This document shows positions 3,955-57,392 of a stretch of 64,000 nucleotides of DNA, in pieces (within the stretch, counting starts at the first letter, position 1; each line of letters begins with the position of its first letter). Made by a program: the position numbers and the translations under genes. The notes under the pieces are model-generated. The model worked only from the letters and a program-made list of their open reading frames with translations. It was not told the origin of the DNA and searched no databases. Source of the DNA: a bacterium (GTDB taxonomy: Bacteria; Bacteroidota; Ignavibacteria; Kapaibacteriales; UBA2268); contig JAZDIP010000106.1 in NCBI GenBank assembly GCA_043804925.1, positions 796-64,795 of the forward strand, given 5' to 3'.

Positions 3955-5154
3955 ATGCAAAAAGAAATGAATATGTCAAAACAAAGGTATTTTGTGATAA
4001 TCACATTTTTGTTACTATCAATTTATTCCTTTAGTAAAGCTGATCAGTTAAATTATATCGTTCAAGATTACAATGATTTAAAAGATTATGATATTATTAA
4101 TAAAAATGAATGTGTTACATCCGGTAAACATGATGTTGCTAATAATTTGCAAGAACTTGTTGTTGTCGATTCCATAAGTATTGGTAGAATACATCTTCAT
4201 GATTTGGCATGGGACGGTAAAAATTTGTGGATAATCGTGAGTTTCCCGGAAGACCCTGACTCGATATTTAAAGTAGATCCTTCAAACGGTACTGTTTTAG
4301 ATTCATTTAAAATAGATATTGATTCCATGAGATATTCCCAAGGGTTGGCATGGGACCCGGATTCCCCTGGTGGTCCCTTTTTATGGTGTTCATCAGATGC
4401 ACATTATGATAAACCTGAAGAACCGGGAGAAATAGTAAAAATAAGAATCAAGGATTTTAGTGTAGAAGATGTATTTAATAATACGGATAAACATCCGGAT
4501 GGTATTGAATGGGACGGAAATATACTATGGATCAGTGCAAATTTCAAAGATGCTATTATGACACTTAATCCTTATACGAGAGAACTTAAATCTTTGTATT
4601 CCAAGTCAGGTTGGATAGAATATGCTTATCAAATTACTATTTCTAAATATGGAAATGGAAAATCATTACTTTGGATATGTAGTGATGATTATTTTTCTGA
4701 TGTAGATACTGTTTATGTTGTCGATCCACCAACTGGAAATATAATTCAAAAATTTTTAAATTATCAACCATCTAATTCAGGAATATGCTGGGACGATGGT
4801 TCACCCGGAGGTCCATATTTGTGGGTATCTGATTGGAGAACTCATATGATTTATAAAATTCAAGCTCCTGTGATTTTTAATAATAAAGATACGATTAGAA
4901 CAACTTTTTCCATATATCCCAATCCCTTCATTCAAAAAACAACAATTCAATTCTATCTTTATCATCCCGAAAAAATAAATCTAACAATATATAATTTGCT
5001 TGGATATAAATTAGCTGTTTTAGCAGACGAATATCTGAGTGAAGGTAACCATGAATTCACATTCGACGGCTCTGCTTTAGCCAGTGGTACGTATTACTAT
5101 GTACTTCAAGCAAATGGGAAAGTAGAATCAGGTAAACTGATTTTGATTAAGTGA
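3955..5154 (+). CDS. Secreted beta-propeller-repeat protein with T9SS C-terminal sorting domain
   Basis: Signal peptide MSKQRYFVIITFLLLSIYSFSKA. There are four repeats of the (G)xAWD(G)xxLW blade motif (glutaminyl-cyclase/YVTN-like). The C-terminus ...FTFDGSALASGTYYYVLQANGKVESGKLILIK is a type IX secretion CTD. Confidence 0.75.
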   Translation: MQKEMNMSKQRYFVIITFLLLSIYSFSKADQLNYIVQDYNDLKDYDIINKNECVTSGKHDVANNLQELVVVDSISIGRIHLHDLAWDGKNLWIIVSFPEDPDSIFKVDPSNGTVLDSFKIDIDSMRYSQGLAWDPDSPGGPFLWCSSDAHYDKPEEPGEIVKIRIKDFSVEDVFNNTDKHPDGIEWDGNILWISANFKDAIMTLNPYTRELKSLYSKSGWIEYAYQITISKYGNGKSLLWICSDDYFSDVDTVYVVDPPTGNIIQKFLNYQPSNSGICWDDGSPGGPYLWVSDWRTHMIYKIQAPVIFNNKDTIRTTFSIYPNPFIQKTTIQFYLYHPEKINLTIYNLLGYKLAVLADEYLSEGNHEFTFDGSALASGTYYYVLQANGKVESGKLILIK

Positions 5155-5181
5155 ATATTGAATAGTGAAAAATGAAAAATT

Positions 5182-6615
5182 ATGACTCCATACGAAGAAT
5201 ATAAAGCAAGATTGAAAGTTACCAAAGAAGGCACTGAGAGCAAAAACAGCGGCGAATGTACACCCTGCAGATTAAAAATTGCACAGGATACTTTCAATAT
5301 GGTAACCGGTGGTTCCCAGTATTTGCCAACAAATGAACCATTGCCGGGATACTTTAAGACAGTAGAGGAGTTGTGTTATCCATACCACAACAACACTGAC
5401 AACAGGCATCTTGAAAATGCGATTGACAGGTTGTATGGGAGGAAGATGCCGGATTATAATCCGGATGATGTAATTGGGGAGTTATATGGATTTTTTCCAC
5501 ACGGAAGAATTATTGATGATTCTGACAAGCCACAAGGGATTCCAGAACAACCCAGTTCTGAAAAGTTTGGAACTGATGTGCCAATTGATCTACCTTGTTG
5601 GGAAGATGATTATATTGACCATATTTTTTGGTTTTTTAGGCGGCAGGATGTTTTTAATCTTGATTCTGAAGGAAATTTATTTTTAAAATTTCCAAATAGA
5701 ACATTATCATTAAACATTAAAGATATTACATACAAACTAATAAAAGAAATATTTTGCAGAAAAAGCAGAGAATCTACAGGATTTCTATACTGGAACTTTT
5801 TTTTAACATTAATAAAGGATTCAATTGAAAAATTTTTATTAGAAAATGCCACTTTTGATGAAGTTGAATATTATCATAAAATAATAGAAGAAGAAATAGT
5901 CGAAAAAATTTTATATGATGGCTCATTAGCACAAGGAGATGGTGCTCCCTTAATTCAGGGAATACCTGATAGATTTTTAAATCTAAATGGAATTCATGAC
6001 AGAAATTGTCTTTGTGGTGGACCTTATCCAACATATTGTTGTGAGCCTGAAAAAAATCCTGAACTTTGTTATTGTAACGGAGAGATTAGGAATTTATGTG
6101 ATTTTTGCAAAATTGATTTGCCATTACCAAGTGTCTTAAAAATTTGGAGTAAGTCTGATTCAAGCCAAGAAAAATGTGGCTATGAAATCTATAAAGAAGA
6201 AGATATTAATAGTGAAGAAATTGATAGATTATCTTCAATTACTTACCATGTATTAGGTTTAACTTCTTATGGAAGGGCATTTGGAAAATATAATTTCAAT
6301 GATTTAGAATATTGCGATGAATACAATGATCAAAGAAAGTTACCTTTAGAAGTTCCAATTGATGAAGAATGTGATATTTTATTAGTTTTAAGCTTCCCTT
6401 GTAATTGGTGTTGTAATATTAAAATATCTGAAGATCCACCAATTTGGGAGAAAACAAATCGAAGGCGAGATATACAATTTGAACTGAAAAACTTCAATTA
6501 TCAAGAATGGATAAAAAAGAATAAATATGAAAGGGAACATTTCCTAAATTTGGATATAATTTTAGATGGGGAAAGCGGTTCAGAGGAATTTACTAAAGAT
6601 TGTGTTTCTTGCTAA
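5182..6615 (+). CDS. Cysteine-rich hypothetical protein (paralog 2), no signal peptide
   Basis: 477 aa. Paralog of 2507..3931: MTPYEEYKARLKVTKEG...CTPCRLKIAQDTFNMVTGGSQYLPTNEP matches MYVYEEYKVRLKITEEP...CTSCRKKIAQDTFDMVAGGSQYLPTNEP. It has the same Cys-rich modules. Confidence 0.7.
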   Translation: MTPYEEYKARLKVTKEGTESKNSGECTPCRLKIAQDTFNMVTGGSQYLPTNEPLPGYFKTVEELCYPYHNNTDNRHLENAIDRLYGRKMPDYNPDDVIGELYGFFPHGRIIDDSDKPQGIPEQPSSEKFGTDVPIDLPCWEDDYIDHIFWFFRRQDVFNLDSEGNLFLKFPNRTLSLNIKDITYKLIKEIFCRKSRESTGFLYWNFFLTLIKDSIEKFLLENATFDEVEYYHKIIEEEIVEKILYDGSLAQGDGAPLIQGIPDRFLNLNGIHDRNCLCGGPYPTYCCEPEKNPELCYCNGEIRNLCDFCKIDLPLPSVLKIWSKSDSSQEKCGYEIYKEEDINSEEIDRLSSITYHVLGLTSYGRAFGKYNFNDLEYCDEYNDQRKLPLEVPIDEECDILLVLSFPCNWCCNIKISEDPPIWEKTNRRRDIQFELKNFNYQEWIKKNKYEREHFLNLDIILDGESGSEEFTKDCVSC

Positions 6616-6684
6616 TCTATTTGGTCAATACATTCTTCTATTAAATATTGATATTTAAATTTATTAGATATTTTTTTAAAATTT

Positions 6685-7935
6685 ATGAAAAAAATTTATT
6701 TTTTAATATTAATATTTTTTTGTCTCATTTTTTTAACTAATGAGAATTATTTGATATCTTCTACATACTGGGAAAATACTAATTTCAATTACAATATTGA
6801 AATTACATGTATAGGTATAGATAGTTCAAATCATATACGTGTAGGTTCATCAATCGGGTCATATAGTTTTTCTAATAAATGGAGAAAAGACAGAGATGAT
6901 TCATTACTAGTAAATAATATTAAAGTTTTGAGATTTGAAAACTCAGGATTATATTTATGTTATATAATATATAACAATATAATAGATGATAACAGTTTTA
7001 TTTATGAATATTTCGGAAATGGTTATCAAATATTTGGAAGGAGTTTAAAATCAATTATTACATCACTTGTAGCATATAATAAATATTATCCTTTTATTTC
7101 TGTTATTGGAGATTCAATAAAAGGAGGAGTTAATATAATGGATTTTTCTGAGGATAGTGGCTGGCGGCCTTTAAATAATGGTTTACCAGTAGAAAATGAC
7201 AGTATAAAAGCATTAGACATTATTAACAAAAACGATACATTGTTTGTTGCTCTGAGTAATGGGCTGTACTATTCAACAAATGATGGTGAGATATGGCTAC
7301 CGGTCTCATTTTTTAATGGTCTCGAAGTTGACAAATTCGTTTTGAATACAAAGAATGATTTATATTTTATAGTTTCCGGTACTGCTGAAAAAAGCGGTCT
7401 ATACAAAAACAATGTAAAAATATTCGATGATGTTTTGCCACTATCAGCAGTGGCGATCAACAGGAATGATGATGTTTTTGTTTCGTCAAGTATCAGAGGC
7501 AGGGGTGTCTTATGGACAAGCGACAATGGTACTGATTGGCAAGAAATGTACGACGGCTTGGACAGTTGCGAAATAACAGCTTTAATATGTGATTTGGATG
7601 GTTATATATATGCCGGAACAAACGGACAGGGCATTTACAAAAGCTTGAAATCCACAACAAAAGTTGACGAAATCGCCAAAGATGAATTATTCGTATCTCC
7701 CAATCCCTTCTCCGAAAAAACAAGAATTTCGTTTAATCTCGAAAATTCGGCTTATACAAAAATTATTGTTTACAATTCTCTGGGATTTGTAATTGATGTT
7801 TTAACAGATGAATATCTCAGCGAAGGACTGCACGAATTTACATTCGACGGCTCTGCTTTAGCCAGCGGGACGTATTATTACGTTTTGCAGGCAGACGGAA
7901 AAGTAGAAACAGGGAAGCTGGTTTTGATTAAGTGA
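6685..7935 (+). CDS. BNR/Asp-box repeat protein with T9SS C-terminal sorting domain
   Basis: Signal peptide. Asp-box-like motifs YYSTNDGEIW and LWTSDNGTDW. The C-terminal 45 aa are near-identical to the CTD of 3955..5154, at the DNA level as well. Confidence 0.75.
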   Translation: MKKIYFLILIFFCLIFLTNENYLISSTYWENTNFNYNIEITCIGIDSSNHIRVGSSIGSYSFSNKWRKDRDDSLLVNNIKVLRFENSGLYLCYIIYNNIIDDNSFIYEYFGNGYQIFGRSLKSIITSLVAYNKYYPFISVIGDSIKGGVNIMDFSEDSGWRPLNNGLPVENDSIKALDIINKNDTLFVALSNGLYYSTNDGEIWLPVSFFNGLEVDKFVLNTKNDLYFIVSGTAEKSGLYKNNVKIFDDVLPLSAVAINRNDDVFVSSSIRGRGVLWTSDNGTDWQEMYDGLDSCEITALICDLDGYIYAGTNGQGIYKSLKSTTKVDEIAKDELFVSPNPFSEKTRISFNLENSAYTKIIVYNSLGFVIDVLTDEYLSEGLHEFTFDGSALASGTYYYVLQADGKVETGKLVLIK

Positions 7936-8270: not shown

Positions 8271-9230
8271 TTAAATCTGAGATTTCAAAAGCTGATTGAA
8301 TTTTTCTGCTATTGCTTTGGCTTCATTTTTTGTCGAGAATACTGCTCCGTTGAACATCCAATAATGGTCTCCATTTACGTGTTTTGTCATCAAAATCCAC
8401 TGTTTTTTCCTGAATACAACAGGCATGCTCGGTTCGACCAGCCACATTGGGTTTCCTTTGACACTGTCATTTTTCATAAAGACGACTTCTTCGATATAAT
8501 TGGCATCCGGTTGAAAACCTGCAACAGATTTCTTTCGTTTCACCCAAAGCGTGTTTGTTGTCCAGTCAATTCCGCATTTAATCTTCGTTTTAGCCAAAGT
8601 TCTCCATGGGAAAAAAGTGAGAAAACAAATGACAGAAATGAGAAACATAATAGGTGCCATATCAGCATCACGCTTTTCACCCAATATTATCAACCCTATA
8701 AAAGCAAAAAATCCGCCGACTGCAAAGGGTGCTGTATGTGATGCCTCCAGCCATCCTCTGCTTCGCCAGACTGTCTGTTCAAATTGTGGGGATTTTTCGG
8801 ATGTGTCAATCAATTCCTCTTTGATATTATCGATATCTGTTGGCAAAACATGCCGTTTTCTTATTGGGAATGTCCCCTGTGAAGCAAAGTATTCAGCACG
8901 GATTTCCCGTTTGTCAAAAGTAATTTCCTTCCTTGCGATTTTCAATACTTCATCATTTGTTATTTCTTTGCCTGTTTCGGAATATTTAATAGAATTGTTT
9001 TCAATGAAGAAAGCTTCGACATCTTCTCTTCCATATCTGATAACAAAACTAGGAGGACACAAATCCCCTGAAGAATAATCGAGATTATCCCTTATTCCTT
9101 TTAGCTTTTCCAATAATTCCAAAGTTTTATAATCTGATAAATTTTCAAAGTCAATAGTATCAAAACTTCCGCTTGCAGTTGTCAGGTTTTCGTCTATTCC
9201 CTGTACCGATAATGTAAAATACTTTGCCAT
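8271..9230 (-). CDS. Hypothetical membrane protein (two central TM helices)
   Basis: 319-aa ORF with ATG start preceded by AGGAG. It has hydrophobic segments APFAVGGFFAFIGLIILG and IMFLISVICFLTFFPW. No recognisable catalytic motifs. Confidence 0.55.
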   Translation of the reverse strand: MAKYFTLSVQGIDENLTTASGSFDTIDFENLSDYKTLELLEKLKGIRDNLDYSSGDLCPPSFVIRYGREDVEAFFIENNSIKYSETGKEITNDEVLKIARKEITFDKREIRAEYFASQGTFPIRKRHVLPTDIDNIKEELIDTSEKSPQFEQTVWRSRGWLEASHTAPFAVGGFFAFIGLIILGEKRDADMAPIMFLISVICFLTFFPWRTLAKTKIKCGIDWTTNTLWVKRKKSVAGFQPDANYIEEVVFMKNDSVKGNPMWLVEPSMPVVFRKKQWILMTKHVNGDHYWMFNGAVFSTKNEAKAIAEKFNQLLKSQI

Positions 9231-9407
9231 TGTTTTCTCCTTTCATTTTAATAGATATTAAAAGAACTTTGCAATTTAATAATTTTCTGGTTCCATTTAA
9301 AATATTTTAAAATAATAATGGCTTAAATACAAAAATTCAATTTCTTATTGCATTATTATCCCGATTTAGTTAATTTAAAAAATTAGATTATGATAAATGG
9401 AGGTGTA

Positions 9408-10763
9408 ATGAAAAAAAATATATTAATATTGTCTGCAATAACCATTCTTGTTACTGTGAGTTTAACAAGTTTTCCTGAAAACAGCGACCCTCGTTTCGGA
9501 AAATACAAATACGAAGATTTCCAAACACCCGAGTACTGCGGTGCTTCCTGCCATGTAGATTTTTACCGTCAATGGAAACAATCAATGATGTCTCAGGCGT
9601 ACATTCATCATTGGGACGAAATTGAGTATTTCGAACTTGCTGTTCCACATGCAGAAAAAGACCCAAAGGTTGCTGAAGTTAAGGATGGATGCAATGGATG
9701 TCATGCTCCTATGGCTTATCTTGCAGGAAACACACCTCCCCCAAGACCTGAAAAAGGAGACAGAGCAAACGAAGCTGTTGCATGTGATATTTGTCACAGT
9801 ATAACCGGATTTGAAGGGGATATTCCTTACAATTTCAATTATATAATGAAACCCGGAAAAGATAAATTCAGTTCACGAGGCGGCGGCAATCAATCTCCTA
9901 ATCACAACATTGTTGTAAGCGATTTGCATCGTAGCGGAGATTTTTGCGGTATTTGTCACAATGAAAAAAGTCCGTTTGGGATTTGGGTTAAATCAACACA
10001 TCTCGAATGGAAGGAAGGACCATATTATAAAGAAGGCGTTCAATGTCAGGATTGTCACATGCCAAAAGGAAAAAGCTATACGGCTTCTATGGGTAAACTC
10101 TACGATAATTCCAGACAGCATTTGTTTCACGGTGCGCATGACCCGGGAAAAGTAAAAGGGACAATCGAACTTAGAATTCATCCTGATATTATTGAAGCAG
10201 AACCCGGTGAACCTGTTAAGTTTACAATTGCATTATTCAACCAGAAAACCGGACATAAGTTCCCGACCGGTTCAGTTGAAGACAGAATTGTTTGGATGCA
10301 TGTAGAAGCGACAGATGCTAAGGGTAATAAATATCATTTAAAAGTTGATAAAAAAGGATTCGATGGAGAGGAATACACTATTGCTTCTGATGTTCTTGCT
10401 TATCAGGATATGGGTATTGCTAAAAACATTCCTGATTTCAAAGGAGTCCAGCGTGACGGAATACCAATAGGTGACAGAATTTTCCGTATGCCGTACTTTG
10501 ATCCACAGGGCAGGATGACGATACAGCAATGGAATACTTCAAAACTTGGAGTTGATTACAGAATTGGACCAAAGGAAACTAAAATAGAAACATGCACTTT
10601 TACATTACCGAATGATGTTGCTCCCGGAAAAATGAAAGTAACAGCAGTTTTGAATTATCAGAAGCTGATTAAACCTGTTGCTGATTTTCTCAATGTACCT
10701 GACGATGAGGAAGAAATTATTAAAGTAAATGAGCATAGTACTGAGGTTATTATATTGGAATAG
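9408..10763 (+). CDS. Periplasmic multiheme c-type cytochrome (5 CxxCH)
   Basis: Signal peptide MKKNILILSAITILVTVSL. Five CxxCH motifs: CGASCH, CNGCH, CDICH, CGICH, CQDCH. The ATG at 9408 is preceded by GGAGG. Confidence 0.85.
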   Translation: MKKNILILSAITILVTVSLTSFPENSDPRFGKYKYEDFQTPEYCGASCHVDFYRQWKQSMMSQAYIHHWDEIEYFELAVPHAEKDPKVAEVKDGCNGCHAPMAYLAGNTPPPRPEKGDRANEAVACDICHSITGFEGDIPYNFNYIMKPGKDKFSSRGGGNQSPNHNIVVSDLHRSGDFCGICHNEKSPFGIWVKSTHLEWKEGPYYKEGVQCQDCHMPKGKSYTASMGKLYDNSRQHLFHGAHDPGKVKGTIELRIHPDIIEAEPGEPVKFTIALFNQKTGHKFPTGSVEDRIVWMHVEATDAKGNKYHLKVDKKGFDGEEYTIASDVLAYQDMGIAKNIPDFKGVQRDGIPIGDRIFRMPYFDPQGRMTIQQWNTSKLGVDYRIGPKETKIETCTFTLPNDVAPGKMKVTAVLNYQKLIKPVADFLNVPDDEEEIIKVNEHSTEVIILE

Positions 10764-10819
10764 TAAAGCAAGTTTGAAAGAAATATTAAGTTAATAAATA
10801 AATTTCAAGGGGAGTTATT

Positions 10820-12028
10820 ATGAAAAAAATTTTTACACTAATTATTACATTTGTATTATTAGCAATGCTGATGAGTGAAACCTTGCAGGCAATTCCGGCA
10901 TTCGCAAGAAAGTACAACATGTCTTGCCAGACCTGTCATTCACCGGCACCAAGACTTAAGGCATATGGCGATGATTTTGCCGGGAACGGGTTTCGGCTTT
11001 CTGATAAAGATGCACCACGATATACTGTCGAAACAGGTGATGCCGATTTATCATTAATACGAGACTTCCCAATTGCCGCACGATTTGATGCTCATGCAAC
11101 ATATAATAATGCTAATCAGGAGAACAGTGATTTTGGTGTACCCTACATTTTAAAGCTTTTGAGTGGTGGAGAAATTGCCAAAGACTTTGCATATTACTTT
11201 TATTTTTATTTAAGTGAAAGAGGAGAGTTGGTAGGTGTTGAAGATTGCTATATAATGTTCAATGACCTTTTTAATATTGACCTGGATTTATATTTTGGTC
11301 AGTTTCAGGTTTCCGACCCGCTTTTCAAAAGGGAACTGAGATTAACGCTTGAAGATTATCAGCCATATAAAATGAAGCCGGATTTTTCAAAAATGAATCT
11401 CGCTTATGACAGAGGGATAATGCTGACATACGGGATGGATTGGGGAACGGATGTTATTCTCGAAGTTGTGAACGGATGCGGTTTACCCAAAGCTGATGCG
11501 AACAAACTTTTTGATATTGACGGACACAAAACATTAGTCGGTAGGGTATCTCAAGATATAGGAGATTTCTTAAGAATCGGCGGGTTTTTCCTGACCGGAA
11601 AAGAAGATATGGACAACATTATTTCCGACTATGTTACTAACAATGTTCAATCATATGGACCGGATATGACTTTGTCGTTCGGGGAAATGATTGAATTAAA
11701 TCTCCAATATGTTATGAGAAATGATAATTTTGTTTTTTCCACTACTGACTCAGTAGGAACCACTCAGTGGGTAGTTGATTTAAATACGAAGGGTGCAATG
11801 GCTGAATTAATCTTTACTCCACAGGGAGACCAAAGCAAATGGTATGCCGCTTCGGTTTTCAATTGGATTGAATCTGATGACAAATCTTTAAATTACAAAA
11901 CGGCAACATTGCATTTTGGATATTTACTGAAAAGAAATTTGAGGCTGGCTTTGGAAGGAACATATAATTTCTCAGATGCCGACGATCCATATACTCAGTT
12001 CAGTCTGGGAATTGTAACAGCTTTTTAA
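10820..12028 (+). CDS. Cyc2-like fused monoheme cytochrome-porin (outer-membrane beta-barrel with an N-terminal CxxCH)
   Basis: Signal peptide. There is a single CQTCH about 15 aa after the predicted cleavage site, the length is about 400 aa, and the C-terminus ends ...GIVTAF (an aromatic OMP terminus). RBS AAGGGGAG. The assignment to the Cyc2 family rests on architecture only. Confidence 0.6.
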   Translation: MKKIFTLIITFVLLAMLMSETLQAIPAFARKYNMSCQTCHSPAPRLKAYGDDFAGNGFRLSDKDAPRYTVETGDADLSLIRDFPIAARFDAHATYNNANQENSDFGVPYILKLLSGGEIAKDFAYYFYFYLSERGELVGVEDCYIMFNDLFNIDLDLYFGQFQVSDPLFKRELRLTLEDYQPYKMKPDFSKMNLAYDRGIMLTYGMDWGTDVILEVVNGCGLPKADANKLFDIDGHKTLVGRVSQDIGDFLRIGGFFLTGKEDMDNIISDYVTNNVQSYGPDMTLSFGEMIELNLQYVMRNDNFVFSTTDSVGTTQWVVDLNTKGAMAELIFTPQGDQSKWYAASVFNWIESDDKSLNYKTATLHFGYLLKRNLRLALEGTYNFSDADDPYTQFSLGIVTAF

Positions 12029-12040
12029 TTAGGAGGAATC

Positions 12041-12586
12041 ATGTTTTTTAATTATCAAAATATTGAAACAATGCTTACTGAAAAAAATCGCAAGAAGTAT
12101 ATCATTGCCGATTTCCTTGTTGGCAGGGGTTTCATTATATCACCTGTTATTATGGTTTTAGTATTCAGTTTGGTAAATTATTTTTTAGGAGACCCTCTGT
12201 TACCTTTTATCTACTATGCTTATATGTTTTTGGTAGTTTTCACCGTTGGTATCGCTGTATCCGTCATAATGTTTTCGGTAGAAAAGAAAATATTACAGGA
12301 ATTTAAAAATCAAAGTCAAGAGAAAAAGTTTTCGAAGCTTAAAATAATATTGTTTCTCAATGAATCATTTTACATTTTTGGATTTGTTATTGCCATTCAA
12401 ACATACAATACATTTAAGAGAATGTACACAGAAGGAACAAATATGTTCATCATAATTTTTTCTTCATTAATCATGATTTTGTTCTCTGTAATAATCGGTT
12501 TTATTGTTTATAAAAGTAACTTCAAAAAGCTGAAAGCTGAAATCGAAAGAAAAGGACTGTTTGAGAAATTGACAATTGATAATTAG
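12041..12586 (+). CDS. Hypothetical 4-TM membrane protein (paralog a)
   Basis: 181 aa, RBS AGGAGG. It ends ...EIERKGLFEKLTIDN, like its neighbour. Confidence 0.6.
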   Translation: MFFNYQNIETMLTEKNRKKYIIADFLVGRGFIISPVIMVLVFSLVNYFLGDPLLPFIYYAYMFLVVFTVGIAVSVIMFSVEKKILQEFKNQSQEKKFSKLKIILFLNESFYIFGFVIAIQTYNTFKRMYTEGTNMFIIIFSSLIMILFSVIIGFIVYKSNFKKLKAEIERKGLFEKLTIDN

Positions 12587-12594
12587 GATTTAAA

Positions 12595-13128
12595 ATGAAT
12601 TTAAAATACTCGAATATTGAAGCAATGTTAACTGAAGAATTGAATTTCAGATATTTCTGCTATCAGATATTGTGGAAAAGAGAGCTTTTCTTTGGAATGA
12701 TTTTTCTACCGTTATTCAATATCACTTATAGCATGATAAAAGGACAGAATCTCATGCCCTACCAATATGTTCATTTGGTTTTTGTCCCATTTATTTTATT
12801 GCTAATTGCAGGGATTTTAATATTTTTTACAGAGAGAATATTTTTGAGAAGATTATCAACAATTGGTAGATACAAAATATTTCAGAGAATCAAATATATT
12901 AATCAAATATCTGTAACTTTATTTATTATGGCTATTGTTACCGGAATAATAATAACTAAGGGTAAACCTGAAGATTTTTCAATCTTGAATTACCTCCAAA
13001 AAATGGGGATAGCCTTTATTGTTGTTTTCCCCGGAACATGGTTGTTTAAATGGTTCGGCGGTTATAAAACATTATTATCCGAAATCGAAAGAAGAGGACT
13101 GTTAGAAAAACTGACAATTGATAATTGA
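12595..13128 (+). CDS. Hypothetical 4-TM membrane protein (paralog b)
   Basis: 177 aa. Shares the N-terminal (NIEAMLTEE) and C-terminal (EIERRGLLEKLTIDN) motifs with 12041..12586. Confidence 0.6.
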   Translation: MNLKYSNIEAMLTEELNFRYFCYQILWKRELFFGMIFLPLFNITYSMIKGQNLMPYQYVHLVFVPFILLLIAGILIFFTERIFLRRLSTIGRYKIFQRIKYINQISVTLFIMAIVTGIIITKGKPEDFSILNYLQKMGIAFIVVFPGTWLFKWFGGYKTLLSEIERRGLLEKLTIDN

Positions 13129-13161
13129 CAATTATTTTCTGTTGTAATTTATTGAAAAAGG

Positions 13162-13623
13162 ATGGAAATTATGGCAAAGAAAAAAACAAATCTGGTAGCG
13201 GCAACGATAATATGCATCATTATCGGGACAGGATTCATTGCTTTAGGAATCTATCTTTATTTTGACTATTCCGGAAGCAACATTATGAATCCGAAACAGG
13301 CAGACGGTACAATCATCCGCTTGCACGAAACAAAAAGGGACAACCGGAATCCCTTGAGGAAGGATTATCATTCAGTCAATCCTATTGTAGAATTTTCATC
13401 CGAAGAAGGCAAGAAATATGAATTCCTCGAACTCTGGGGTGCCCAATACGATGATGAAGCATTCACAGTCGGACAAAAGGTTTCAGTTATATACAACGAA
13501 TTGAATCCCGAAGAAGCTATGCTCAAACAGGAAAATTCAATTTGGGGAGTACATCTCTTCTTGATTGGTATGGGCTTGTTTTTCTATCTGACTCCATGGC
13601 TGATGAAAATAGCACAGACTTAA
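13162..13623 (+). CDS. DUF3592-like small membrane protein
   Basis: An N-terminal TM segment, then a beta-rich domain, then a C-terminal TM segment. The layout resembles DUF3592. Confidence 0.5.
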   Translation: MEIMAKKKTNLVAATIICIIIGTGFIALGIYLYFDYSGSNIMNPKQADGTIIRLHETKRDNRNPLRKDYHSVNPIVEFSSEEGKKYEFLELWGAQYDDEAFTVGQKVSVIYNELNPEEAMLKQENSIWGVHLFLIGMGLFFYLTPWLMKIAQT

Positions 13624-13690: not shown

Positions 13691-14080
13691 ATGAAAAAAT
13701 ATCAACAAAACAAAAGTATTTGCGTAGCCGTATTATCGCTAACCTTTATGTTCGTATTGATTAACTATGTTTTCGCAAAGGATATTCACTCAACAAAAGA
13801 AGGTGGTGAGTGGTGCAAAAACAGCACTTGGATAAGCGGTGAAATACCCGGCAGCAATGACAATGTTACTATAAACGGGAAGGTTTTTGTCAATTGTCCC
13901 GCATTTGCCGATTCCATGCATATTAATTTTGACGGCTTATTGATTATTAATGAAACCGATTCCTTACAATGCCACCTGATAATGCTTGAAGAAGAAGGTG
14001 ACAAAAAAGGTACTATCCAAAATAATGGAATAATTATTGTTACTGATAAACCTGAAATCAAAAAGGAAGAAGAATATTAA
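13691..14080 (+). CDS. Secreted hypothetical protein
   Basis: 129 aa with signal peptide and an acidic C-terminal tail. Confidence 0.5.
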   Translation: MKKYQQNKSICVAVLSLTFMFVLINYVFAKDIHSTKEGGEWCKNSTWISGEIPGSNDNVTINGKVFVNCPAFADSMHINFDGLLIINETDSLQCHLIMLEEEGDKKGTIQNNGIIIVTDKPEIKKEEEY

Positions 14081-14085
14081 TTTTA

Positions 14086-14442
14086 TTGCTATATATTATG
14101 AAAACAGAAAAGACCGGACATAATCAAATAATTGACATCAATAAAATAGTTGCCGGTAATAGAGAAAAGTGGATAAATTTCACATTGACGGAAGTAAATA
14201 ATTCACTGGTCAGATTGGGTATTTTTGAAGGGGAATTCCACTGGCACCATCACGACAATGAAGACGAATATTTTCATGTCCTAAGCGGAAAACTGATACT
14301 CGATGTTGAAGACAAAACTTATGAATTATTACCCGGACAGGGCTTTACTGTTCCACGGGGAATTGAACACCGAACCAGAGCTTATGAAAAAACAATAGTG
14401 ATAATGGTCGAGGGGAATACGGTTAATCCAAAAGGAGATTAA
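14086..14442 (+). CDS. Cupin domain protein
   Basis: Cupin motifs HWHHHDNEDEYFHVLSG and PRGIEHR. Confidence 0.7.
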   Translation: MLYIMKTEKTGHNQIIDINKIVAGNREKWINFTLTEVNNSLVRLGIFEGEFHWHHHDNEDEYFHVLSGKLILDVEDKTYELLPGQGFTVPRGIEHRTRAYEKTIVIMVEGNTVNPKGD

Positions 14443-14470
14443 TTCTTATAAATTTATAAGGAACGAAAAA

Positions 14471-15139
14471 ATGAAAATAATTCTAAGTATCGCAGTTTTT
14501 TTCATAATAAGTTGTTCTGTTGAAGCTAATGAAATAATTGATATAATTTATTTAAAAGACAGCACAATAATAAAAGGAACAATTATCGAACAGATACCTA
14601 ATGAATCTTTAACAATACGTGATTTCAAAAATGAAATCCATAAAATAAAATTTGAAGATGTTTTATCAATTAAAACTTATGACCTTGCTGATATTAGTTT
14701 ATACAGGAAAAATTACTTTGAATTGGGCGGCTCTTTTGGTACCCCGGCAGGTTTTAATTTAAATGCAGCAGGTTGGTATCAGTTTTTGGGAATTGGTATA
14801 AGCGGAATGTATTTGGGGAATGACAGATACGGAATACAGGGAAATTTAAAAATTAAAATTTCAGACAATTATAACAGGTGTCATTCAATTTCATTTTTAT
14901 TATATAAAACATACAGAAGTATTCCAAACACTCAGCCGAAAGCTCCTTATTATATAGATGAAGATATTTCAGATATGCAAGTATATTGTATAACTTACAA
15001 TCTAAATTACAATGGGTTTTGGCTTGAAATTGGTCCGGGAATGAATTTTTGGTATACCAAAAACAACAATGGAATTGCTGATAATTGGTTTCCATTCTTT
15101 GCTTTTCAGATAGGTTATGTTCATAGATTTATTGATTAG
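14471..15139 (+). CDS. Hypothetical secreted/outer-membrane protein
   Basis: Signal peptide with Cys (IISCSV). Aromatic-rich beta-strand-like C-terminal half. Confidence 0.5.
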   Translation: MKIILSIAVFFIISCSVEANEIIDIIYLKDSTIIKGTIIEQIPNESLTIRDFKNEIHKIKFEDVLSIKTYDLADISLYRKNYFELGGSFGTPAGFNLNAAGWYQFLGIGISGMYLGNDRYGIQGNLKIKISDNYNRCHSISFLLYKTYRSIPNTQPKAPYYIDEDISDMQVYCITYNLNYNGFWLEIGPGMNFWYTKNNNGIADNWFPFFAFQIGYVHRFID

Positions 15140-15495
15140 ATATTAAGTTATAAATTATTAAAAGATAATTGTAAGAAGCCATATCGTATTTTTCTTTTTT
15201 TCTTTATTCATAATATTAATATAAATTATTAGTAAATAATCAAAAATTTCCTTAATTTTATAATGCAGCATAGTTTAATCAGTCTGAAATATTTGATAAT
15301 TGGCAGTTTTCCGGGAAAATTGTCTTTATGATATTTGAATTATTTCGGGTAGTTATGTGTGGGTTTTCTTTATTTTTTTAGCATAACTTACCGGAAATGG
15401 AGCTTAATGTCCAAATATTATAAGGACAAAACCGTATAAAAACAAGAACTGATTTAAAAAAATGCTTACTATTGAAAATTAGGAATTCGATATTT

Positions 15496-24592: not shown

Positions 24593-25609
24593 ATGCTTTA
24601 TTGCTGCCCAAATTGTTTTACAGATATTTTTTTACAAAATCAAATACGAGCTCTTAGTAAGAAACAGGGTAATTGCTCATTTTGTAAAACAAAAAATACC
24701 AAATTAATTAAACCAATAGAATTAATTGATCGATTTGAGCCTTTGTTAAATCTATATGAAAAAGATAATAATGGATTATATCTCAACGAATTAATACAAT
24801 CTGACTGGAAGGTTTTTCAATTCAAAAACTCATCAAGCCAAAAAAAATTATTAAATGCACTTTCGGATGATTTTACTGATTATAGTAAAAAATATAGACC
24901 AATTTTATCAAAGGAACGCAAAAATATTGAGCAATGGGAAAGTTTTAGAGAAGAGTTGAAGCATCATAACAGATTTTTCCCGAAAAACGCAATCAATCTT
25001 AATCAATTGGAGCCATTTGGCAAATATCTCGGATTAATACTTAAGCCAGGTTCACAAAAGTTCTACCGAGCTAGATTGAATACAACAGGCAAACCTATTG
25101 TATTATCGAAAATGGGTAAACCACCTAATAATATTGTTTCAAATGGGAGGGCTAATCCACTTGGAATTTCTTATTTATATGTTGCATCTACCATTGATAC
25201 TGCAATTGCAGAAATTAGAGGACAAAAAGGTGAATTAATTACTGTTGCTGAATTCGAATTAAAAAAAAATTTGGAATTAGCAGATTTACGAGATCCTATT
25301 AAAACAATTAGCCCATTTGATTTTAACTCTAATGATGAATTAGAATTGATATATAAAAATATGCCTTTTCTGATTTTACTCGGTAATGAACTATCAAAAC
25401 CCGTTATGCCAAGGGAGGCAAATTTAGAATATCTTCCGAGCCAATACCTTTCTGAATTATTTAAACATATTGGTTTCCACGGAATAATATATAGAAGCTC
25501 TATTTCAGATGGAAATAATTACGTAATTTTTGAAGATAAAAGATTAAAACCTTATAATACATATCAGTTTATAATTAAAGACGTACAAACTTTTCATGAA
25601 AAAATTTAA
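24593..25609 (+). CDS. Zinc-ribbon + RES-domain protein (putative NAD+-targeting effector)
   Basis: N-terminal C4 zinc ribbon: CCPNCF...(22 aa)...CSFCKT. RES-domain hallmarks: GRANPLGISYLYVASTIDTAIAEI (Arg/Glu) and GIIYRSSISDGNNYVIF (Ser). Confidence 0.65.
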   Translation: MLYCCPNCFTDIFLQNQIRALSKKQGNCSFCKTKNTKLIKPIELIDRFEPLLNLYEKDNNGLYLNELIQSDWKVFQFKNSSSQKKLLNALSDDFTDYSKKYRPILSKERKNIEQWESFREELKHHNRFFPKNAINLNQLEPFGKYLGLILKPGSQKFYRARLNTTGKPIVLSKMGKPPNNIVSNGRANPLGISYLYVASTIDTAIAEIRGQKGELITVAEFELKKNLELADLRDPIKTISPFDFNSNDELELIYKNMPFLILLGNELSKPVMPREANLEYLPSQYLSELFKHIGFHGIIYRSSISDGNNYVIFEDKRLKPYNTYQFIIKDVQTFHEKI

Positions 25610-26322: not shown

Positions 26323-29300
26323 CTACCTAACCTTAATAAACGGCATCGTATAAGTCTTCATACCGCTTGTGATTCGAATGTAATATGCTCCCGATGTCAG
26401 TGATGATACTTCAAAAGATACATTTTCCGCATTGCTATCAAATGACATTCTTTCATATCCGAGATTATCCAAAATTGTAATCGTACTATTGAAAATATTT
26501 GCCTGTTTAAATGAAATATTAATTATACTTCCGACTGGATTCGGATATAAAGATATAATCTTTTCTGCATCCTCATCAACCGAACTGCCGAAGGAATAAT
26601 ATAACATTATATCAACGTATGATGGTTCACTTTGAGTTAATGTAATTGTTCTTTCTGCATTAATATCAGCCAAACCGACTTTTTCTGCGGCTATTTTCCA
26701 TTGGTTCAATCCTAAATTGGATAAAGAATAATATCCATTTTGAGAATCGTAAGTATATGTATATTTACAAATTTTGCCTGCCTGGTCGGAAGCAAATACA
26801 GTAACACCAAGAGGTAACATTTGTGTATATGAAACACTCATCATATTAAAAATAATCATTTCCACAGTACCGCTAATTTTCCCGGCACCACTGGTAGGAG
26901 TGACTTTTTCAGTTTTAATATATATATCTTCTATCAAACCGCCGGAAGCTTCAATAATATTAGTTTTACGCCATGAATAAACAGGTTCAGCTTCTTCTGA
27001 ATAATATGCAGGATAATAATTCAAATCTGCAGGATATGCCCTGACAATATAATTACTACTAATCGGTACAACAAGATTATAATTTCCATCTGTTGCTACA
27101 GTCGAATTTACATAATCAACAGAATATTTCAATGCATCCGAACCTTCGGCTTCTTCAATTTTGTATGCAACAACAACAGCAGGAATTGGCAAGGCACTTT
27201 CGTCTAATATTGCCCCCTCTATATTAACGGTACTTTTTGGCAGTTGTTCCAATTCAAAATCAAAGTCATTTTTGTTGATGTTTTTCATTAGAGGTGCTTC
27301 GGCAAAATCATATAAAGAAGGATAGAACTGTGCAGAGTATTGACCATCTTTTACTGCGAATGCCCTGAAAGCAGTATCTTTTCCTATCTCGAAAGAGAAA
27401 TTACCATCTGCATCCGTAAATACCGTCCTGATTTCACCTGTTTCCAAAATGAAATGGACACTTGCATCTTCTATTGTAGCAGAATTGTCATTTGTAACCA
27501 CACCACTGATTTTATATTTAATGATTTTATCAGTAACCATTGCCGTAATATCCAAAGTATCTCCTGCAGTTAATGAAAGCTTCTCGGCATCGGCAAAATC
27601 AGTTTTGTTATTGTACCAGCAATCCTGAAATAATTCTCCCATTAGGTGCAAATAATAATCTCCGCCCGGGACTGCAAACAGAGCTTTAGCTTCGGCATCA
27701 GTTGACAAAGTAAATGTCGAACTGAAATCCGTGGGGTATAAGTTTAAGGTTGCATCAGGATAAATTACTGAACCTTGCTTAACCAGAACCGATAAATACG
27801 CAGTACCGGAACCTTCCAAGACATCTATTTTCCATGACTGCTGTATATTAACAGCCGGATTATTTTTTAAGTATGCTTCCAGTGTTACTGAAAAAGTCCC
27901 TGAACTTTCGGGAGTCCAATTTATCAATCCCGATGATTTGCCAACTATCATACCAACAGGTGCTTCTGCTAATTCGAACAATACAGTATCTATGCTATTT
28001 GTGATGGCTTCTGCATCATAAGAATAAAGTTGTCCAACATTTGCTTTGGTTGTTGGAGTTGATTTAAAGCTGATTGTAGGATTAGTGTGTGAATGTCTAT
28101 CAAGATATATCGCAACTACTTTTGTCCTATCTATTTCATTCACATAAACATCGTCGGAAGTATAATACTGATATCCGATTTTATCAACCTTTATTGTATA
28201 ATGGTCGGATGCTATATCACGAAAACTAAAACCGCCGTGTTGGTTCGTCGTTTGTATTGAAACAATTGCATTTTTACTATTTAAAAGATAAACAACCGCT
28301 CCCTGAATACTTTCATCTGCCTGAGTCTTTTCATTTTTCAAATCAATAACATTATTATTAATAAAAACTCCACCGTAAATATTGTACTCACCGTCAGGAT
28401 ATGTTGTTGCTCTCACAACCATCAGATGATTAATAAACTCAGTGTTCTCATCAACATTAATTAATGTTGCATCAAACCAATGCGGTACAACTTCTTCAGT
28501 TATATGATAGAAACCGGATGTATAGTTACCATAAGGAATGGCTCTAACGATATATTTCCCGGATTCAAGATTCCTGAAAGTAAAATTCCCATTATCATCG
28601 CTTTCAATAGTTCTTACACCGGATGTTTCCTGATGCTTGTATAGAATTAGCATTGCCTTAACTCCGGTACCCATATTATCCCTGACCTTTCCGTTTATAG
28701 CATTTAATGATACCGGATATTCTTTGAGTACAAAATTAAGATTTTCGATATCTTCATTTTCAATAACTAAATATTCTGATTCAAGATAATCGTATGAATT
28801 ATTATAATACATTGGAATAAATTTTTTGGGATTATAATCATCATAAGCGATTATTTTATAATGATAACGATTATTTAATTCAATCGAATAAAAACCATCA
28901 TTTGCAGTTGAAACCGTATAAATGTTATTAATTTTATTCAAATATAGTTCAATAACTTCAACAGTACCAGGATACACAGGATAACCTGTGCTTTCTTCAC
29001 TTATATAACCACTGACAGTATGAAGTTCATATGTTTCAACATCAATTTCGATATTTTGAGTTTGTCCGCAAGCTATCTCAACTATATTTGCGTCAAATTC
29101 GAAATCCTGATTGGCATACCATTCAGAAATTAAGTTATCTCCTGATACATAAACTACATAAGCCCCTTCAAGAACTTCAATACTAAAATATCCTGTTTCA
29201 TCAGTTGTCGCATAATAATAAACAGTTGTATCTATTGGAAACAAAGATTTAACTGTGATATTTGCACCGGAAACAGGTTCATCATTTTGATTATTAACAT

Positions 29301-40499: not shown

Positions 40500-40627
40500 A
40501 ACAACACCTTTTTTAAGAATTGCAACAATCTTTATTATAAGACACAAAAAATACCGAAATGTTACACTTTTTTTTGAAAATAAATAAAATAAATTTTCTT
40601 TCATCCAAAAAAACCTCATTTTCATTA

Positions 40628-42293: not shown

Positions 42294-42356
42294 GTAAAAT
42301 CTCCTTATATTATTATTAAATTTAATTTATATTTTTCATTTTATCCCTTCTCCCTT

Positions 42357-42400
42357 CTCCGGTCATCCTGAGCTTGTCGAAGGATGTCATTAACAATTAA
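42357..42400. repeat. REP-like palindromic element + TAACAAT heptad tract
   Basis: GGTCATCCTGAGCTTGTCGAAGGATGTCAT followed by taacaattaacaatt. Confidence 0.5.
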
Positions 42401-42403
42401 CAA

Positions 42404-43081: not shown

Positions 43082-43149
43082 AAACTACCTCGCTTTCAAA
43101 CAATATTTGTCTAATAAATGAGTTACCCTGATGGGTTGCTTGACACTGA

Positions 43150-43212
43150 ACCCCCTGAAATCCATCATCCTGAGACTGTCGAAGGATTTCATTAACCATT
43201 AACCATTGACAA
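43150..43212. repeat. REP-like palindromic element + CCATTAA heptad tract
   Basis: CATCATCCTGAGACTGTCGAAGGATTTCAT followed by taaccattaaccattgacaattaaccattaac. Confidence 0.5.
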
Positions 43213-46434: not shown

Positions 46435-46475
46435 TTAGCAACTCCTTGAATAGATTTGTTAATTTTTTAGATTAT

Positions 46476-54034: not shown

Positions 54035-54140
54035 GTTTCAAATATATTACTCTTTTAATTATTTATCAATTAATTAACGAATGATAATATCAATAATTAT
54101 TCATAATTCGTAATTCATAATTAGTAATTAGTAATTGTTT

Positions 54141-55379: not shown

Positions 55380-55381
55380 AA

Positions 55382-57230: not shown

Positions 57231-57261
57231 AAAAATTATTAGGATAAAAAAAAATAAAAAA

Positions 57262-57388: not shown

Positions 57389-57392
57389 AAAA

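Follow-up and report, generated by a model that had tools for sequence, protein, structure and literature searches.

The locus considered here, part of a window of 64,000 nucleotides (the whole stretch of DNA that was analysed), raises the question of whether five consecutive genes form an extracellular electron-transfer operon, as the original prediction proposed, or whether a smaller unit carries the function, and in which direction its electrons would flow. All five open reading frames are real and lie on the plus strand at the following positions, together with the sites discussed below.

9399 to 9403, plus strand: ribosome-binding site GGAGG of the pentahaem gene, 4 nt 5' of the ATG, read in the sequence
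9408 to 10763, plus strand: pentahaem c-type cytochrome gene (gene 1), open reading frame of 451 aa
9537 to 9554, plus strand: haem site 1, CGASCH (CX3CH variant)
9690 to 9704, plus strand: haem site 2, CNGCH, invariant in alignments
9783 to 9797, plus strand: haem site 3, CDICH, invariant in alignments
9945 to 9959, plus strand: haem site 4, CGICH, invariant in alignments
10044 to 10058, plus strand: haem site 5, CQDCH, invariant in alignments
10807 to 10814, plus strand: ribosome-binding site AAGGGGAG of the Cyc2-like gene, 5 nt 5' of the ATG, read in the sequence
10820 to 12028, plus strand: predicted Cyc2-family monohaem cytochrome-porin gene (gene 2), open reading frame of 402 aa
10889 to 10957, plus strand: Cyc2 signature AIPAFARKY-NMS-CQTCH-SPA-PRL, with the haem motif itself at 10925 to 10939
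12041 to 12586, plus strand: 4-TM membrane protein a, open reading frame of 181 aa with four hydrophobic segments
12595 to 13128, plus strand: 4-TM membrane protein b, 177 aa, tandem paralog of a with four hydrophobic segments
13162 to 13623, plus strand: DUF3592-family membrane protein, 153 aa (Pfam PF12158)

Regarding gene 1, position 9408 is the best start because of the GGAGG at 9399 to 9403, and the frame contains no in-frame stop. The product had been described as carrying five CXXCH motifs; the number of haem motifs is correct, whereas only four are CXXCH and the first is CX3CH (C-GAS-CH). This first motif occupies the alignment column of the CXXCH of other orthologs and aligns with the first CXXCH of the PDB 5ZE8 sequence, and CX3CH is found at this site in 52 orthologs and CXXCH in 15. 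A signal peptide is followed by an N-terminal five-haem domain and a C-terminal Ig-like beta-sandwich. The top sequence match is 5ZE8 (E 1.4e-5 in the sequence search and 3e-8 in the profile search), which also ranks top in a Foldseek search with the predicted model (E 1.9e-13, 459 columns). Block-mean pLDDT in the C-terminal half of this model is mostly 72-95, though lower around residues 281-290 and 361-390, while it is below 50 over much of the haem domain (residues 21-244), which is so poorly modelled that haem ligation and an open catalytic site are unreadable from it. The family, with 2550 homologs of the gene 1 product, is very strongly conserved (mean column identity of 77%), and more so than its Cyc2 partner. 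Its alignment contains ten invariant haem cysteines, which are the only conserved ones, five proximal histidines, and six further invariant histidines, enough for the bis-His ligation of all five haems; invariant motifs outside the haem sites, such as HLFHGAHDPG and KTGHKFPTGSVEDR, lie within or near the beta-sandwich. The gene 1 product is a soluble periplasmic pentahaem cytochrome of the PHC fold class (PMC11976967), which combines a five-haem helical cap with an Ig-like beta-sandwich.

Gene 2 begins 56 nt after gene 1 and is preceded by its own ribosome-binding site, as had been predicted. Its product was expected to be a protein of roughly 400 aa with a signal peptide, a single haem motif, and an aromatic C-terminus, and this description holds: residues 1-24 form a signal peptide with predicted cleavage at LQA|IP, the single CQTCH follows at residues 36-40 in a cytochrome domain of about residues 24-60, a 16-strand beta-barrel is predicted for about residues 86-402, and the protein ends in ...TAF, with a terminal Phe. 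The published Cyc2 signature is AXPXFAR[Q/K][T/Y] ... CXXCH ... PXL (PMC8406198), and the signal peptide, AXPXFAR[K]Y, CXXCH, PXL, and length place gene 2 within that definition. The AlphaFold model (pLDDT 76, pTM 0.73) has 16 long strands, in agreement with the beta-barrel expected for 10820 to 12028, and its Foldseek matches are the 16-strand porins Omp32 (1e54), OmpT (5oyk), and OprO (4rjw), with E of about 1e-11; OprO/OprP is also the template reported for Cyc2 (PMC8406198). The best structural matches are thus general porins, and no Pfam or NCBIfam model matches the family, both of which would suit an ordinary diffusion porin with an incidental CXXCH and a meaningless cytochrome neighbour. 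However, P26, C36, C39, H40, P44, and L46 are invariant among homologs down to 26% identity, so that the closest homologs of this protein, among more than 5000, are not ordinary haem-less porins or OmpA proteins. Moreover, the cytochrome domain is homologous to that of an accepted Cyc2 homolog from a Ralstonia megaplasmid (hhalign probability 98%, E 2e-13), whose gene is followed by one for a dihaem c4-type cytochrome. On its sequence and model, the gene 2 product is a Cyc2-type fused monohaem cytochrome-porin, predicted to reside in the outer membrane, as originally proposed.

The linkage of the two genes across genomes also contradicts the ordinary-porin reading, which we regard as scarcely credible. 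A pentahaem gene lies upstream of the Cyc2-like gene in 72/72 informative genome loci, immediately upstream and on the same strand in 69 of them and about 550 nt upstream in the other three; conversely, a Cyc2-like gene lies immediately downstream in 75/75 informative metagenome loci, which were picked by the pentahaem protein. The expectation that a cytochrome gene would adjoin in orthologous loci is therefore borne out in every informative case, for a multihaem cytochrome. The gap between the two reading frames is mostly less than 20 nt in the genome loci. Linkage is still present in a homolog checked at 40% Cyc2 identity and absent in the sampled homologs at 38% and below. Carriers span several phyla and include Ignavibacteria, Kapabacteria, Bacteroidales, and Aminicenantes, with Melioribacter, Rosettibacter, Tangfeifania, and Marinilabilia among the named ones. 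None of the alignments shows variation in the haem Cys and His residues, and homologs of either protein number in the thousands, which indicates that the locus is not a product of chance.

A separate issue is whether the three downstream genes belong to this unit as inner-membrane partners of the cytochromes. They follow gene 2 on the same strand with gaps of 12, 8, and 33 nt, each with the ribosome-binding site that had been noted, and the intergenic DNA contains no terminator-like site before 15302-15324; all three are probably transcribed together with the pair in this genome. The two 4-TM proteins are indeed paralogs (29% identity, E 2e-12), with DNA-level repeats at both ends of their genes, and the assignment of the last protein to DUF3592 is upheld by its PF12158 score (31.9 bits; cut-off 25.3). 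In the closest relative (L089), the pair is likewise followed by genes of these three types, of which the DUF3592 ortholog is 44% identical and the 4-TM gene is single-copy, being matched in tblastn by copy b and missed by copy a. Nevertheless, among 170 loci fetched and searched for downstream genes, about 150 of which have the pair, these genes were found beside it in L089 only. The 4-TM proteins match none of the families in Pfam, NCBIfam, PADLOC, or PHROGs, and with no His or Cys in copy a and one of each in copy b, they are unable to hold a b- or c-type haem and lack ligands for Fe-S clusters, which makes the proposed role of redox partners unlikely. Their shared tails, EIERKGLFEKLTIDN and EIERRGLLEKLTIDN, are present as described, but the L089 ortholog has a different ending, so that they are a feature of this genome and not a general one. 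Synteny thus largely refutes a five-gene electron-transfer operon, which we consider very unlikely, and the three genes are local, lineage-specific additions that lack sites for redox cofactors. What functions as a unit is the module of two genes, for the pentahaem cytochrome and Cyc2, strictly conserved across phyla, whereas the flanking genes vary between loci and include no conserved inner-membrane gene among the loci compared.

A role of this module in Fe(II) oxidation or extracellular electron transfer is suggested by family membership. We infer that the two proteins interact physically and act on iron, and somewhat favour, at little better than even probability, a dedicated electron relay between the outer membrane and the periplasm that works on dissolved iron, with a slight preference for inward flow. 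By analogy with modelled Cyc2, the N-terminal haem domain of about 35 residues would lie where the barrel opens into the periplasm. The pore would admit a small soluble redox species, Fe2+ being the most probable, which would exchange one electron with the Cyc2 haem. The electron would pass to the chain of five haems in the periplasmic partner, which may act as a relay and store that feeds the general respiratory chain. The module itself encodes no inner-membrane component. The slight lean towards inward flow, namely Fe(II) oxidation, comes from the narrow 16-strand pore, about 3.5 Å in barrels modelled on phosphate porins, which is better suited to Fe2+ than to bulky chelates of Fe(III); Fe(II) oxidation is also what all three Cyc2 proteins with biochemical tests carry out. 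Thermochromatium c552, the only close structural relative with biochemistry, is "low-potential" by the title of its paper, which would make the pentahaem partner a poor acceptor for a Cyc2 haem that lies at about +200 mV. For Cyc2 of cluster 3, the FeGenie authors give the annotation 'probable oxidation, possible reduction'.

The low potential named in that title would suit the opposite direction, in which quinol electrons pass through the pentahaem cytochrome and leave by way of the Cyc2 haem, reducing a soluble acceptor outside the cell. As far as is known, most carriers of the pair are organoheterotrophs from sediments and aquifers with an anaerobic or facultative metabolism, for which such a conduit would be an electron sink under fermentative or anaerobic growth. 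Melioribacter, Rosettibacter, Tangfeifania, and Marinilabilia are organoheterotrophs and are not known as Fe(II) oxidisers, which speaks against an iron-oxidation relay. Furthermore, Ignavibacteria have been called iron reducers in a published paper, taxa that reduce Fe(III), among them Ignavibacteriaceae, Geobacter, and Rhodoferax, are reported to have Cyc2 homologs, and the closest named pentahaem homolog is from the iron-rich Chocolate Pots hot spring. However, Fe(III) is either insoluble at neutral pH or complexed by bulky chelators, which the pore would hardly admit, and the tested Cyc2 proteins argue for oxidation; we regard outward flow as possible, but clearly less probable than the relay with inward flow.

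A further reading, which we consider unlikely, is that the pentahaem protein is an enzyme reducing a small periplasmic substrate at one haem, as in the polysulfide reductase MccSep/ExtKL, with the Cyc2-like protein providing either electrons (from Fe2+) or passage for the substrate through the outer membrane. In that case the two proteins would make up an oxidoreductase that is complete without an inner-membrane partner, in line with the variable flanks described above. MccSep, a relative in fold class, is catalytic, Geobacter extKL is clustered with the porin gene extI, and the conservation of the pentahaem protein extends beyond its haem sites and exceeds that of its partner. Against this, the catalytic residues of MccSep (the haem-ligating Cys and the Sec/Cys) are missing, and the invariant histidines suffice to ligate all five haems. 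Returning to the preferred relay, Cyc2 is a popular marker gene for iron oxidation, and since the pair is kept in hundreds of sediment bacteria not known as iron oxidisers, the marker may signal another function in them.

We found no paper describing this pairing of the known Cyc2 family with the known PHC fold class. Among the closest known systems is Cyc2 itself, as studied in A. ferrooxidans (Cyc2), Leptospirillum (Cyt572), and Mariprofundus (Cyc2PV-1) (Keffer et al., 2021, PMC8406198), with which the gene 2 product shares a signal peptide, a single N-terminal CXXCH, a length of about 400 aa, the conserved residues before and after the haem motif, a 16-strand porin like OprO/OprP, and a cytochrome domain that is better conserved than the barrel. 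The systems differ in the partner gene, which is always of the pentahaem PHC type here and encodes a dihaem c4-type cytochrome in the Burkholderiaceae plasmid loci examined, accompanied in the Caballeronia locus by a HiPIP. Acidithiobacillus cyc2 is accompanied by rusticyanin or Cyc1, and the hosts of the present pair are, as far as is known, Ignavibacteria, Kapabacteria, Bacteroidales, and Aminicenantes heterotrophs rather than lithotrophic iron oxidisers.

The low-potential pentahaem cytochrome c552 of Thermochromatium tepidum (PDB 5ZE8), to which, according to a paper on cable bacteria, a function in sulfur metabolism has been tentatively ascribed, is the best full-length sequence and fold match to gene 1 and has five haem motifs in the same order and the C-terminal Ig-like beta-sandwich, but is only about 18% identical and lacks the one-residue insertion in the first haem site. 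ExtKL/MccSep, the pentahaem selenoprotein polysulfide reductase of the Geobacter ExtHIJKL cluster (bioRxiv 10.1101/2025.11.18.688581), is likewise periplasmic with a five-haem cap and an Ig-like stem, and its gene also adjoins one for an outer-membrane beta-barrel. The NCBIfam ExtKL model matches the gene 1 product weakly (E 1.9e-8, 33 bits against a cut-off of 250), this product has neither the Sec/Cys at the catalytic position nor the haem-ligating Cys, and in contrast to the Geobacter cluster, this window shows no rhodanese-like gene next to the pair; ExtI is described only as an outer-membrane porin, whereas the barrel beside gene 1 is a predicted haem-carrying 16-strand Cyc2. MtrCAB, MtoAB, PioAB, and Geobacter OmbB-OmaB-OmcB also have a barrel gene adjoining a periplasmic multihaem cytochrome gene and a presumed electron path across the outer membrane; however, their barrels have 20-26 or more strands, are haem-free, and sheathe a cytochrome of 8-10 haems, whereas the predicted Cyc2-like barrel, with 16 strands and a haem of its own, would be too small to admit its five-haem partner.

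ORF calling confirmed the five open reading frames that had been described on the forward strand, which are arranged as follows:

9408-10763, forward strand, pentahaem cytochrome (gene 1), 451 aa
10820-12028, forward strand, Cyc2-like fused monohaem cytochrome-porin (gene 2), 402 aa
12041-12586, forward strand, four-segment membrane protein (4-TM-a)
12595-13128, forward strand, tandem paralog of the preceding gene (4-TM-b)
13162-13623, forward strand, DUF3592 protein

Regarding gene 1, the start at 9408 was preferred because GGAGG is located 4 nt upstream, and the protein of 451 aa read from this position has a predicted signal peptide. Gene 2 starts 56 nt past the stop of gene 1 behind AAGGGGAG, in agreement with the gap and ribosome-binding site of the original prediction, and the intergenic gaps before 4-TM-a, 4-TM-b, and the DUF3592 gene are 12, 8, and 33 nt, respectively. 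The signal peptides of the pair contain no lipobox.

The Cyc2-type architecture proposed for gene 2 was upheld: the protein of 402 aa has a single CQTCH (residues 36-40), and its C-terminus reads ...TAF. Cyc2 has been defined by a signal peptide, one CXXCH, the motif AXPXFAR[Q/K][T/Y] just upstream of it, PXL four residues downstream of it, a minimum length of 365 aa, and a 16-strand OprO/OprP-like porin, and AXPXFAR[Q/K][T/Y] was called unique to Cyc2 (Keffer et al., PMC8406198). The signal peptide of gene 2 is predicted to be cleaved between MKKIFTLIITFVLLAMLMSETLQA and IP, with a basic N-terminus, a hydrophobic core, and an AXA-like site, and residues 2-23 form a single helix in the AlphaFold model. 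The signature reads A24-I-P-A-F-A-R-K-Y32, followed by NMS and CQTCH, and PXL is present as H40-S-P-A-P44-R-L46; the length exceeds the 365-aa threshold of Keffer et al. (PMC8406198) as well as that of 375 used in FeGenie. CQTCH, the sole CXXCH of the protein, is unchanged in all of 40 close and 30 distant homologs, and P26, C36, C39, H40, P44, and L46 do not vary among homologs down to 26% identity. The AlphaFold model (pLDDT 76, pTM 0.73) has 16 long strands, and its best fold matches in the PDB are 16-strand porins, among which OprO (4rjw) ranks third (E 7e-11). No model in Pfam or NCBIfam matched gene 2, and its homologs are “hypothetical proteins” in the sources that name them. Among residues of the Cyc2-like family, there is no invariant His or Met besides H40 to serve as the sixth haem ligand, and the invariant barrel residues are G160, N218, G219, K237, G254, G280, and D302. 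The motif GQFQVSDPLFKRELRLT, which lies within residues 160-176 and was modelled with low confidence, hardly varies in the PHC-linked clade, PHC being the pentahaem fold class of c552 and ExtKL.

The tie between gene 2 and accepted Cyc2 proteins runs through homologs on Ralstonia and Caballeronia plasmids, not through the reference sequences of iron oxidisers. A plasmid tblastn search with gene 2 gave weak N-terminal matches in replicons of Ralstonia, Caballeronia, and Paraburkholderia, and Ralstonia is among the genera named as Cyc2 carriers (PMC8406198). The homolog on the Ralstonia solanacearum megaplasmid (L088) has a full ORF of 446 aa that reads AVPAFARQT-GMA-CMACH-VSF-PEL, with the motif spacing of gene 2. 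The gene 2 family profile aligned with the cytochrome domain of this homolog over 57 columns in hhalign (probability 98%, E 2e-13), and BLASTP gave E 3e-8. The two barrels were not alignable, as has been reported for Cyc2 proteins in the Cyc2 literature. A chain search from the most distant family member (P0262) toward the canonical Cyc2 of iron oxidisers returned six matches. Based on the published definition, the fold of the model, and the homology of the cytochrome domain, gene 2 encodes a Cyc2-family cytochrome-porin. A dihaem c4-type cytochrome gene lies 3' of the Ralstonia homolog, and the Caballeronia locus (pSBC1_3, L087) contains a HiPIP gene too. Both plasmid-borne homologs are annotated as “cytochrome C” or carry no annotation, and the annotated start of the Caballeronia homolog cuts off the signal peptide and the signature motif, which are included in a longer ORF starting upstream.

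Gene 1 had been described as carrying five CxxCH motifs. Five haem-binding motifs are present, four of which are CXXCH and one, the first, is of the CX3CH type (C-GAS-CH); all five are invariant among orthologs. This CX3CH is regarded as a real haem site because it (9537-9554) aligned with the first CXXCH of c552 from Thermochromatium tepidum (PDB 5ZE8), because its column holds either CX3CH or CXXCH in 68 aligned orthologs, and because the motif counts agree: among 69 ORFs upstream of Cyc2-like genes, 52 have four CXXCH and one CX3CH, and 15 have five CXXCH. The CXXCH form was mostly observed in loci titled Bacteroidales or Bacteroidota among the fetched homologous loci L001-L084. Six further His residues (67, 81, 166, 238, 244, and 283) are invariant in the ortholog alignment and, judging from the sequence, could permit the bis-His ligation of all five haems.

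The sole significant relative of gene 1 in the PDB is 5ZE8 (phmmer 1.4e-5, profile 3e-8), which was also the sole full-length fold match in Foldseek (E 1.9e-13, TM 0.47/0.54, 459 columns); subsequent matches covered the C-terminal Ig-like sandwich alone. The strands of this beta-sandwich lie at residues 253-449 and were modelled with a block-mean pLDDT of mostly 72-95, with dips near residues 281-290 and 361-390, and the N-terminal haem domain was poorly modelled by AlphaFold. With its motifs, Ig-like sandwich, and full-length similarity to 5ZE8, gene 1 encodes a PHC-type pentahaem cytochrome, a family described as comprising c552, Geobacter ExtKL and GSU2801, and the cable-bacteria cytochromes sPHC and lPHC (PMC11976967). 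The conserved Cys residues are the ten of the haem motifs only; one other, C396, occurs in 19% of orthologs. Mean column identity reaches 77%, and some motifs away from the haem sites are invariant too; such very strong conservation is consistent with the possibility that the pentahaem partner is an enzyme.

Cyc2-like relatives were confirmed in at least 589 stretches of species-representative genomes, of which the best 80 were examined as genome loci; these loci are all at least 50% identical because the closer alignment seeded the genome scan, the diverse one being too divergent. They originate from Melioribacteraceae, Ignavibacteriaceae, Kapabacteria, Prolixibacteraceae, Marinilabiliaceae, Aminicenantes, Zixibacteria, and others, and the cultured carriers among them are Rosettibacter primus, Tangfeifania diversioriginum, and Marinilabilia salmonicolor; the pair is also present in a MAG assigned to Melioribacter roseus. 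A multihaem ORF of approximately 450 aa was located directly upstream on the same strand in 69 of the 72 genome loci with enough upstream DNA, and approximately 550 nt upstream of the Cyc2-like gene in the remaining three. In the reverse test on 80 metagenome loci picked by the pentahaem protein, the Cyc2-like gene came next on the same strand in every locus whose downstream DNA extended for 400 nt or more (75/75), the samples being biased toward relatives with at least 50% (Cyc2) or at least 68% (PHC) identity. The linkage was kept in a homolog checked at 40% Cyc2 identity and was not found in those checked at 38%, 32%, 29%, and 26%; in the last of these, the second gene downstream encodes a monohaem cytochrome c instead. 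The genes flanking the pair vary among loci, and the conserved unit is the pair of gene 1 and gene 2, which lie next to each other with short gaps. Five bins titled Hyphomicrobiales, Alphaproteobacteria, and Eubacteriales (L006, L007, L046, L048, and L077) carry a Cyc2-like gene that is 51-62% identical to that of the window, with a pentahaem gene upstream wherever the contig extends far enough, which may reflect mislabelling or horizontal transfer.

Regarding the small genes beside the pair, 4-TM-a and 4-TM-b are paralogs with four hydrophobic segments each (29% identity, E 2e-12), and the DUF3592 gene scored 31.9 bits against PF12158, a family without a known function, at residues 48-123 (cut-off 25.3). 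The 4-TM and DUF3592 genes are probably co-transcribed with the pair; the intergenic DNA contains no terminator-like site before 15302-15324. Homologs of the 4-TM genes, the DUF3592 gene, and a divergent gene on the reverse strand at 8271-9230 were found in none of the fetched loci other than that of the closest relative with a long contig (L089), which has one 4-TM copy with the tail ...EIDRKELLENI. The divergent gene encodes 319 aa with hydrophobic segments, matched no family, and has a counterpart of 60% identity at the same position in L089. The 4-TM and DUF3592 genes are local passengers, and nothing beyond probable co-transcription ties them to electron transfer. The 4-TM proteins matched no model for families (Pfam, NCBIfam), defence (PADLOC), or phages (PHROGs), and an origin of the three small genes in a defence system or phage was discarded on the lack of matches in PADLOC and PHROGs. 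4-TM-a contains no His and no Cys, and 4-TM-b contains one of each; a role as quinol dehydrogenases was rejected since these proteins lack haem ligands and the pair is conserved without them. Rfam searches of the region with E values of up to 1 detected neither a riboswitch nor any other known RNA.

The ends of the two 4-TM genes are alike at the DNA level, with 72% identity over 60 nt at the 5' junctions (12026-12085 and 12580-12639) and 91% over 46 nt at the 3' ends (12539-12584 and 13081-13126), which is far above the 29% identity of the proteins and could reflect gene conversion of the ends or a constraint at the DNA or RNA level. In this region, the sequence that best resembles a sigma-70 promoter (TTGACA-16-TAAAAT, 12569-12596) falls within the first 3' repeat. 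Three further genes follow on the same strand with short gaps, and may share the transcript of the cytochrome pair because the first same-strand intergenic terminator-like site is that at 15302-15324:

within 13691-15139, forward strand, secreted protein, 129 aa, weak G8-domain match
within 13691-15139, forward strand, cupin (Cupin_2, E 2e-13)
within 13691-15139, forward strand, secreted protein, 222 aa, no match

Elsewhere in the window, the products of a cluster on the reverse strand (40704-47318) are NuoE-like and NuoF-like proteins in fusion with a pyridine-nucleotide-disulfide oxidoreductase (1073 aa), a ferredoxin-like protein of the 2Fe-2S/4Fe-4S type, and one that contains a glutamate-synthase domain; the cluster resembles an anaerobe's soluble oxidoreductase complex of the NAD(P)H/ferredoxin type. 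A toxin-like protein that combines a HEPN/RES domain at its N-terminus with a RES domain is encoded at 24593-25609, preceded by two ORFs of approximately 300 aa without a family match. The GC content of the window is lowest (0.24) at 54-56 kb, and a T4-type large terminase gene (57393-58901) comes after this stretch; the stretch from 54000 to 58901 is probably a prophage or phage remnant. Large secreted proteins at 3955-7935, 26323-29991, and 37965-40625 end in Por_Secre_tail, a sorting domain for type IX secretion, and the organism therefore belongs to the Bacteroidota/FCB group.

Concerning the mechanism, by analogy the haem domain of the Cyc2 protein would be located at the periplasmic opening of a barrel that is too narrow for the partner to enter, and its haem would exchange electrons with small dissolved species inside the pore; the pentahaem protein would then dock and ferry charge to or from the respiratory chain. 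Inward flow through the pair may represent Fe(II) oxidation, which agrees with every biochemical precedent for Cyc2 and with the size of the pore. Outward flow may provide an electron sink, and the lifestyle of the hosts, reports of cyc2 from iron reducers, and the label “low-potential” given to c552 all point in this direction. We consider it possible, with low confidence, that the pair in the very large PHC-locked cyc2 clade, which covers Ignavibacteria, Kapabacteria, Bacteroidales, Aminicenantes, Zixibacteria, and others, is not a lithotrophic Fe(II) oxidase and instead functions as an outward electron sink or feeds, through the Cyc2 haem, a periplasmic pentahaem enzyme, a self-contained arrangement that would need no inner-membrane partner. 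A link to the Fe(0) corrosion of Prolixibacter was dropped because the relevant paper credits that corrosion to nitrite.

No marker gene of microbial iron oxidation is used more widely than cyc2. The authors of the Cyc2 work stated that its function in organisms not known as iron oxidisers has yet to be verified and could be a different one. In earlier surveys, cyc2 was recorded in Ignavibacteriaceae, Bacteroidetes, and Aminicenantes. The window belongs to a large cyc2 clade in bacteria not known as iron oxidisers, in which the pentahaem partner is present in all informative sampled loci. The relatives of this partner include a polysulfide-reducing selenoenzyme and a low-potential cytochrome without a known role. 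An invariant coupling of a PHC-type pentahaem cytochrome with this cyc2 clade was not found in the searchable literature, an absence that is not proof of novelty, and nothing relevant to the pairing was found on Cyc2 together with pentaheme, ExtKL, Melioribacter, or Ignavibacteria. From the sequence comparisons, the barrel protein belongs to a known family, and its pairing with a PHC pentahaem cytochrome is what appears to be new. If the doubtful reading that the clade does not oxidise Fe(II) proves true, the use of cyc2 as a marker of iron oxidation, as in FeGenie, would mis-assign the metabolism of a major group in sediments and aquifers. The pair is a concrete two-protein system that bears on metagenomic claims of iron oxidation for Ignavibacteria, Aminicenantes, and related groups, and a test of it would also define a redox partner for the PHC family for the first time.

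Among known systems, ExtKL of Geobacter has now been reported as MccSep, a selenoprotein of the periplasm that acts as a polysulfide reductase, with a Cys-ligated haem 2 (C239, strictly conserved) and a catalytic Sec/Cys (U325) (bioRxiv 10.1101/2025.11.18.688581). In contrast to MccSep, gene 1 lacks the Cys that ligates haem 2 and the catalytic Sec/Cys, and its ORF contains no in-frame TGA. Since it has no conserved Cys outside the haem motifs and scored 33.3 bits against the NCBIfam model for ExtKL (NF040886), which has a cut-off of 250, gene 1 is a relative of MccSep and not a member; membership was ruled out by the absence of the catalytic Cys and Sec. The Mtr/Mto/Pio and Omb-Oma-Omc systems consist of a haem-free barrel of 20 or more strands around a periplasmic cytochrome with 8-10 haems, whereas the present pair has a barrel of 16 strands with its own haem and a partner with five haems. 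An Mtr/Pcc-type complex was excluded because the gene 2 barrel is too small and bears its own haem, and the decahaem models of NCBIfam scored far below their cut-offs at this locus. The present locus also differs from the cyc2 loci examined on Burkholderiaceae plasmids, in which the neighbours are c4 and HiPIP genes, whereas the neighbour of cyc2 in the window is a PHC-type pentahaem cytochrome gene.
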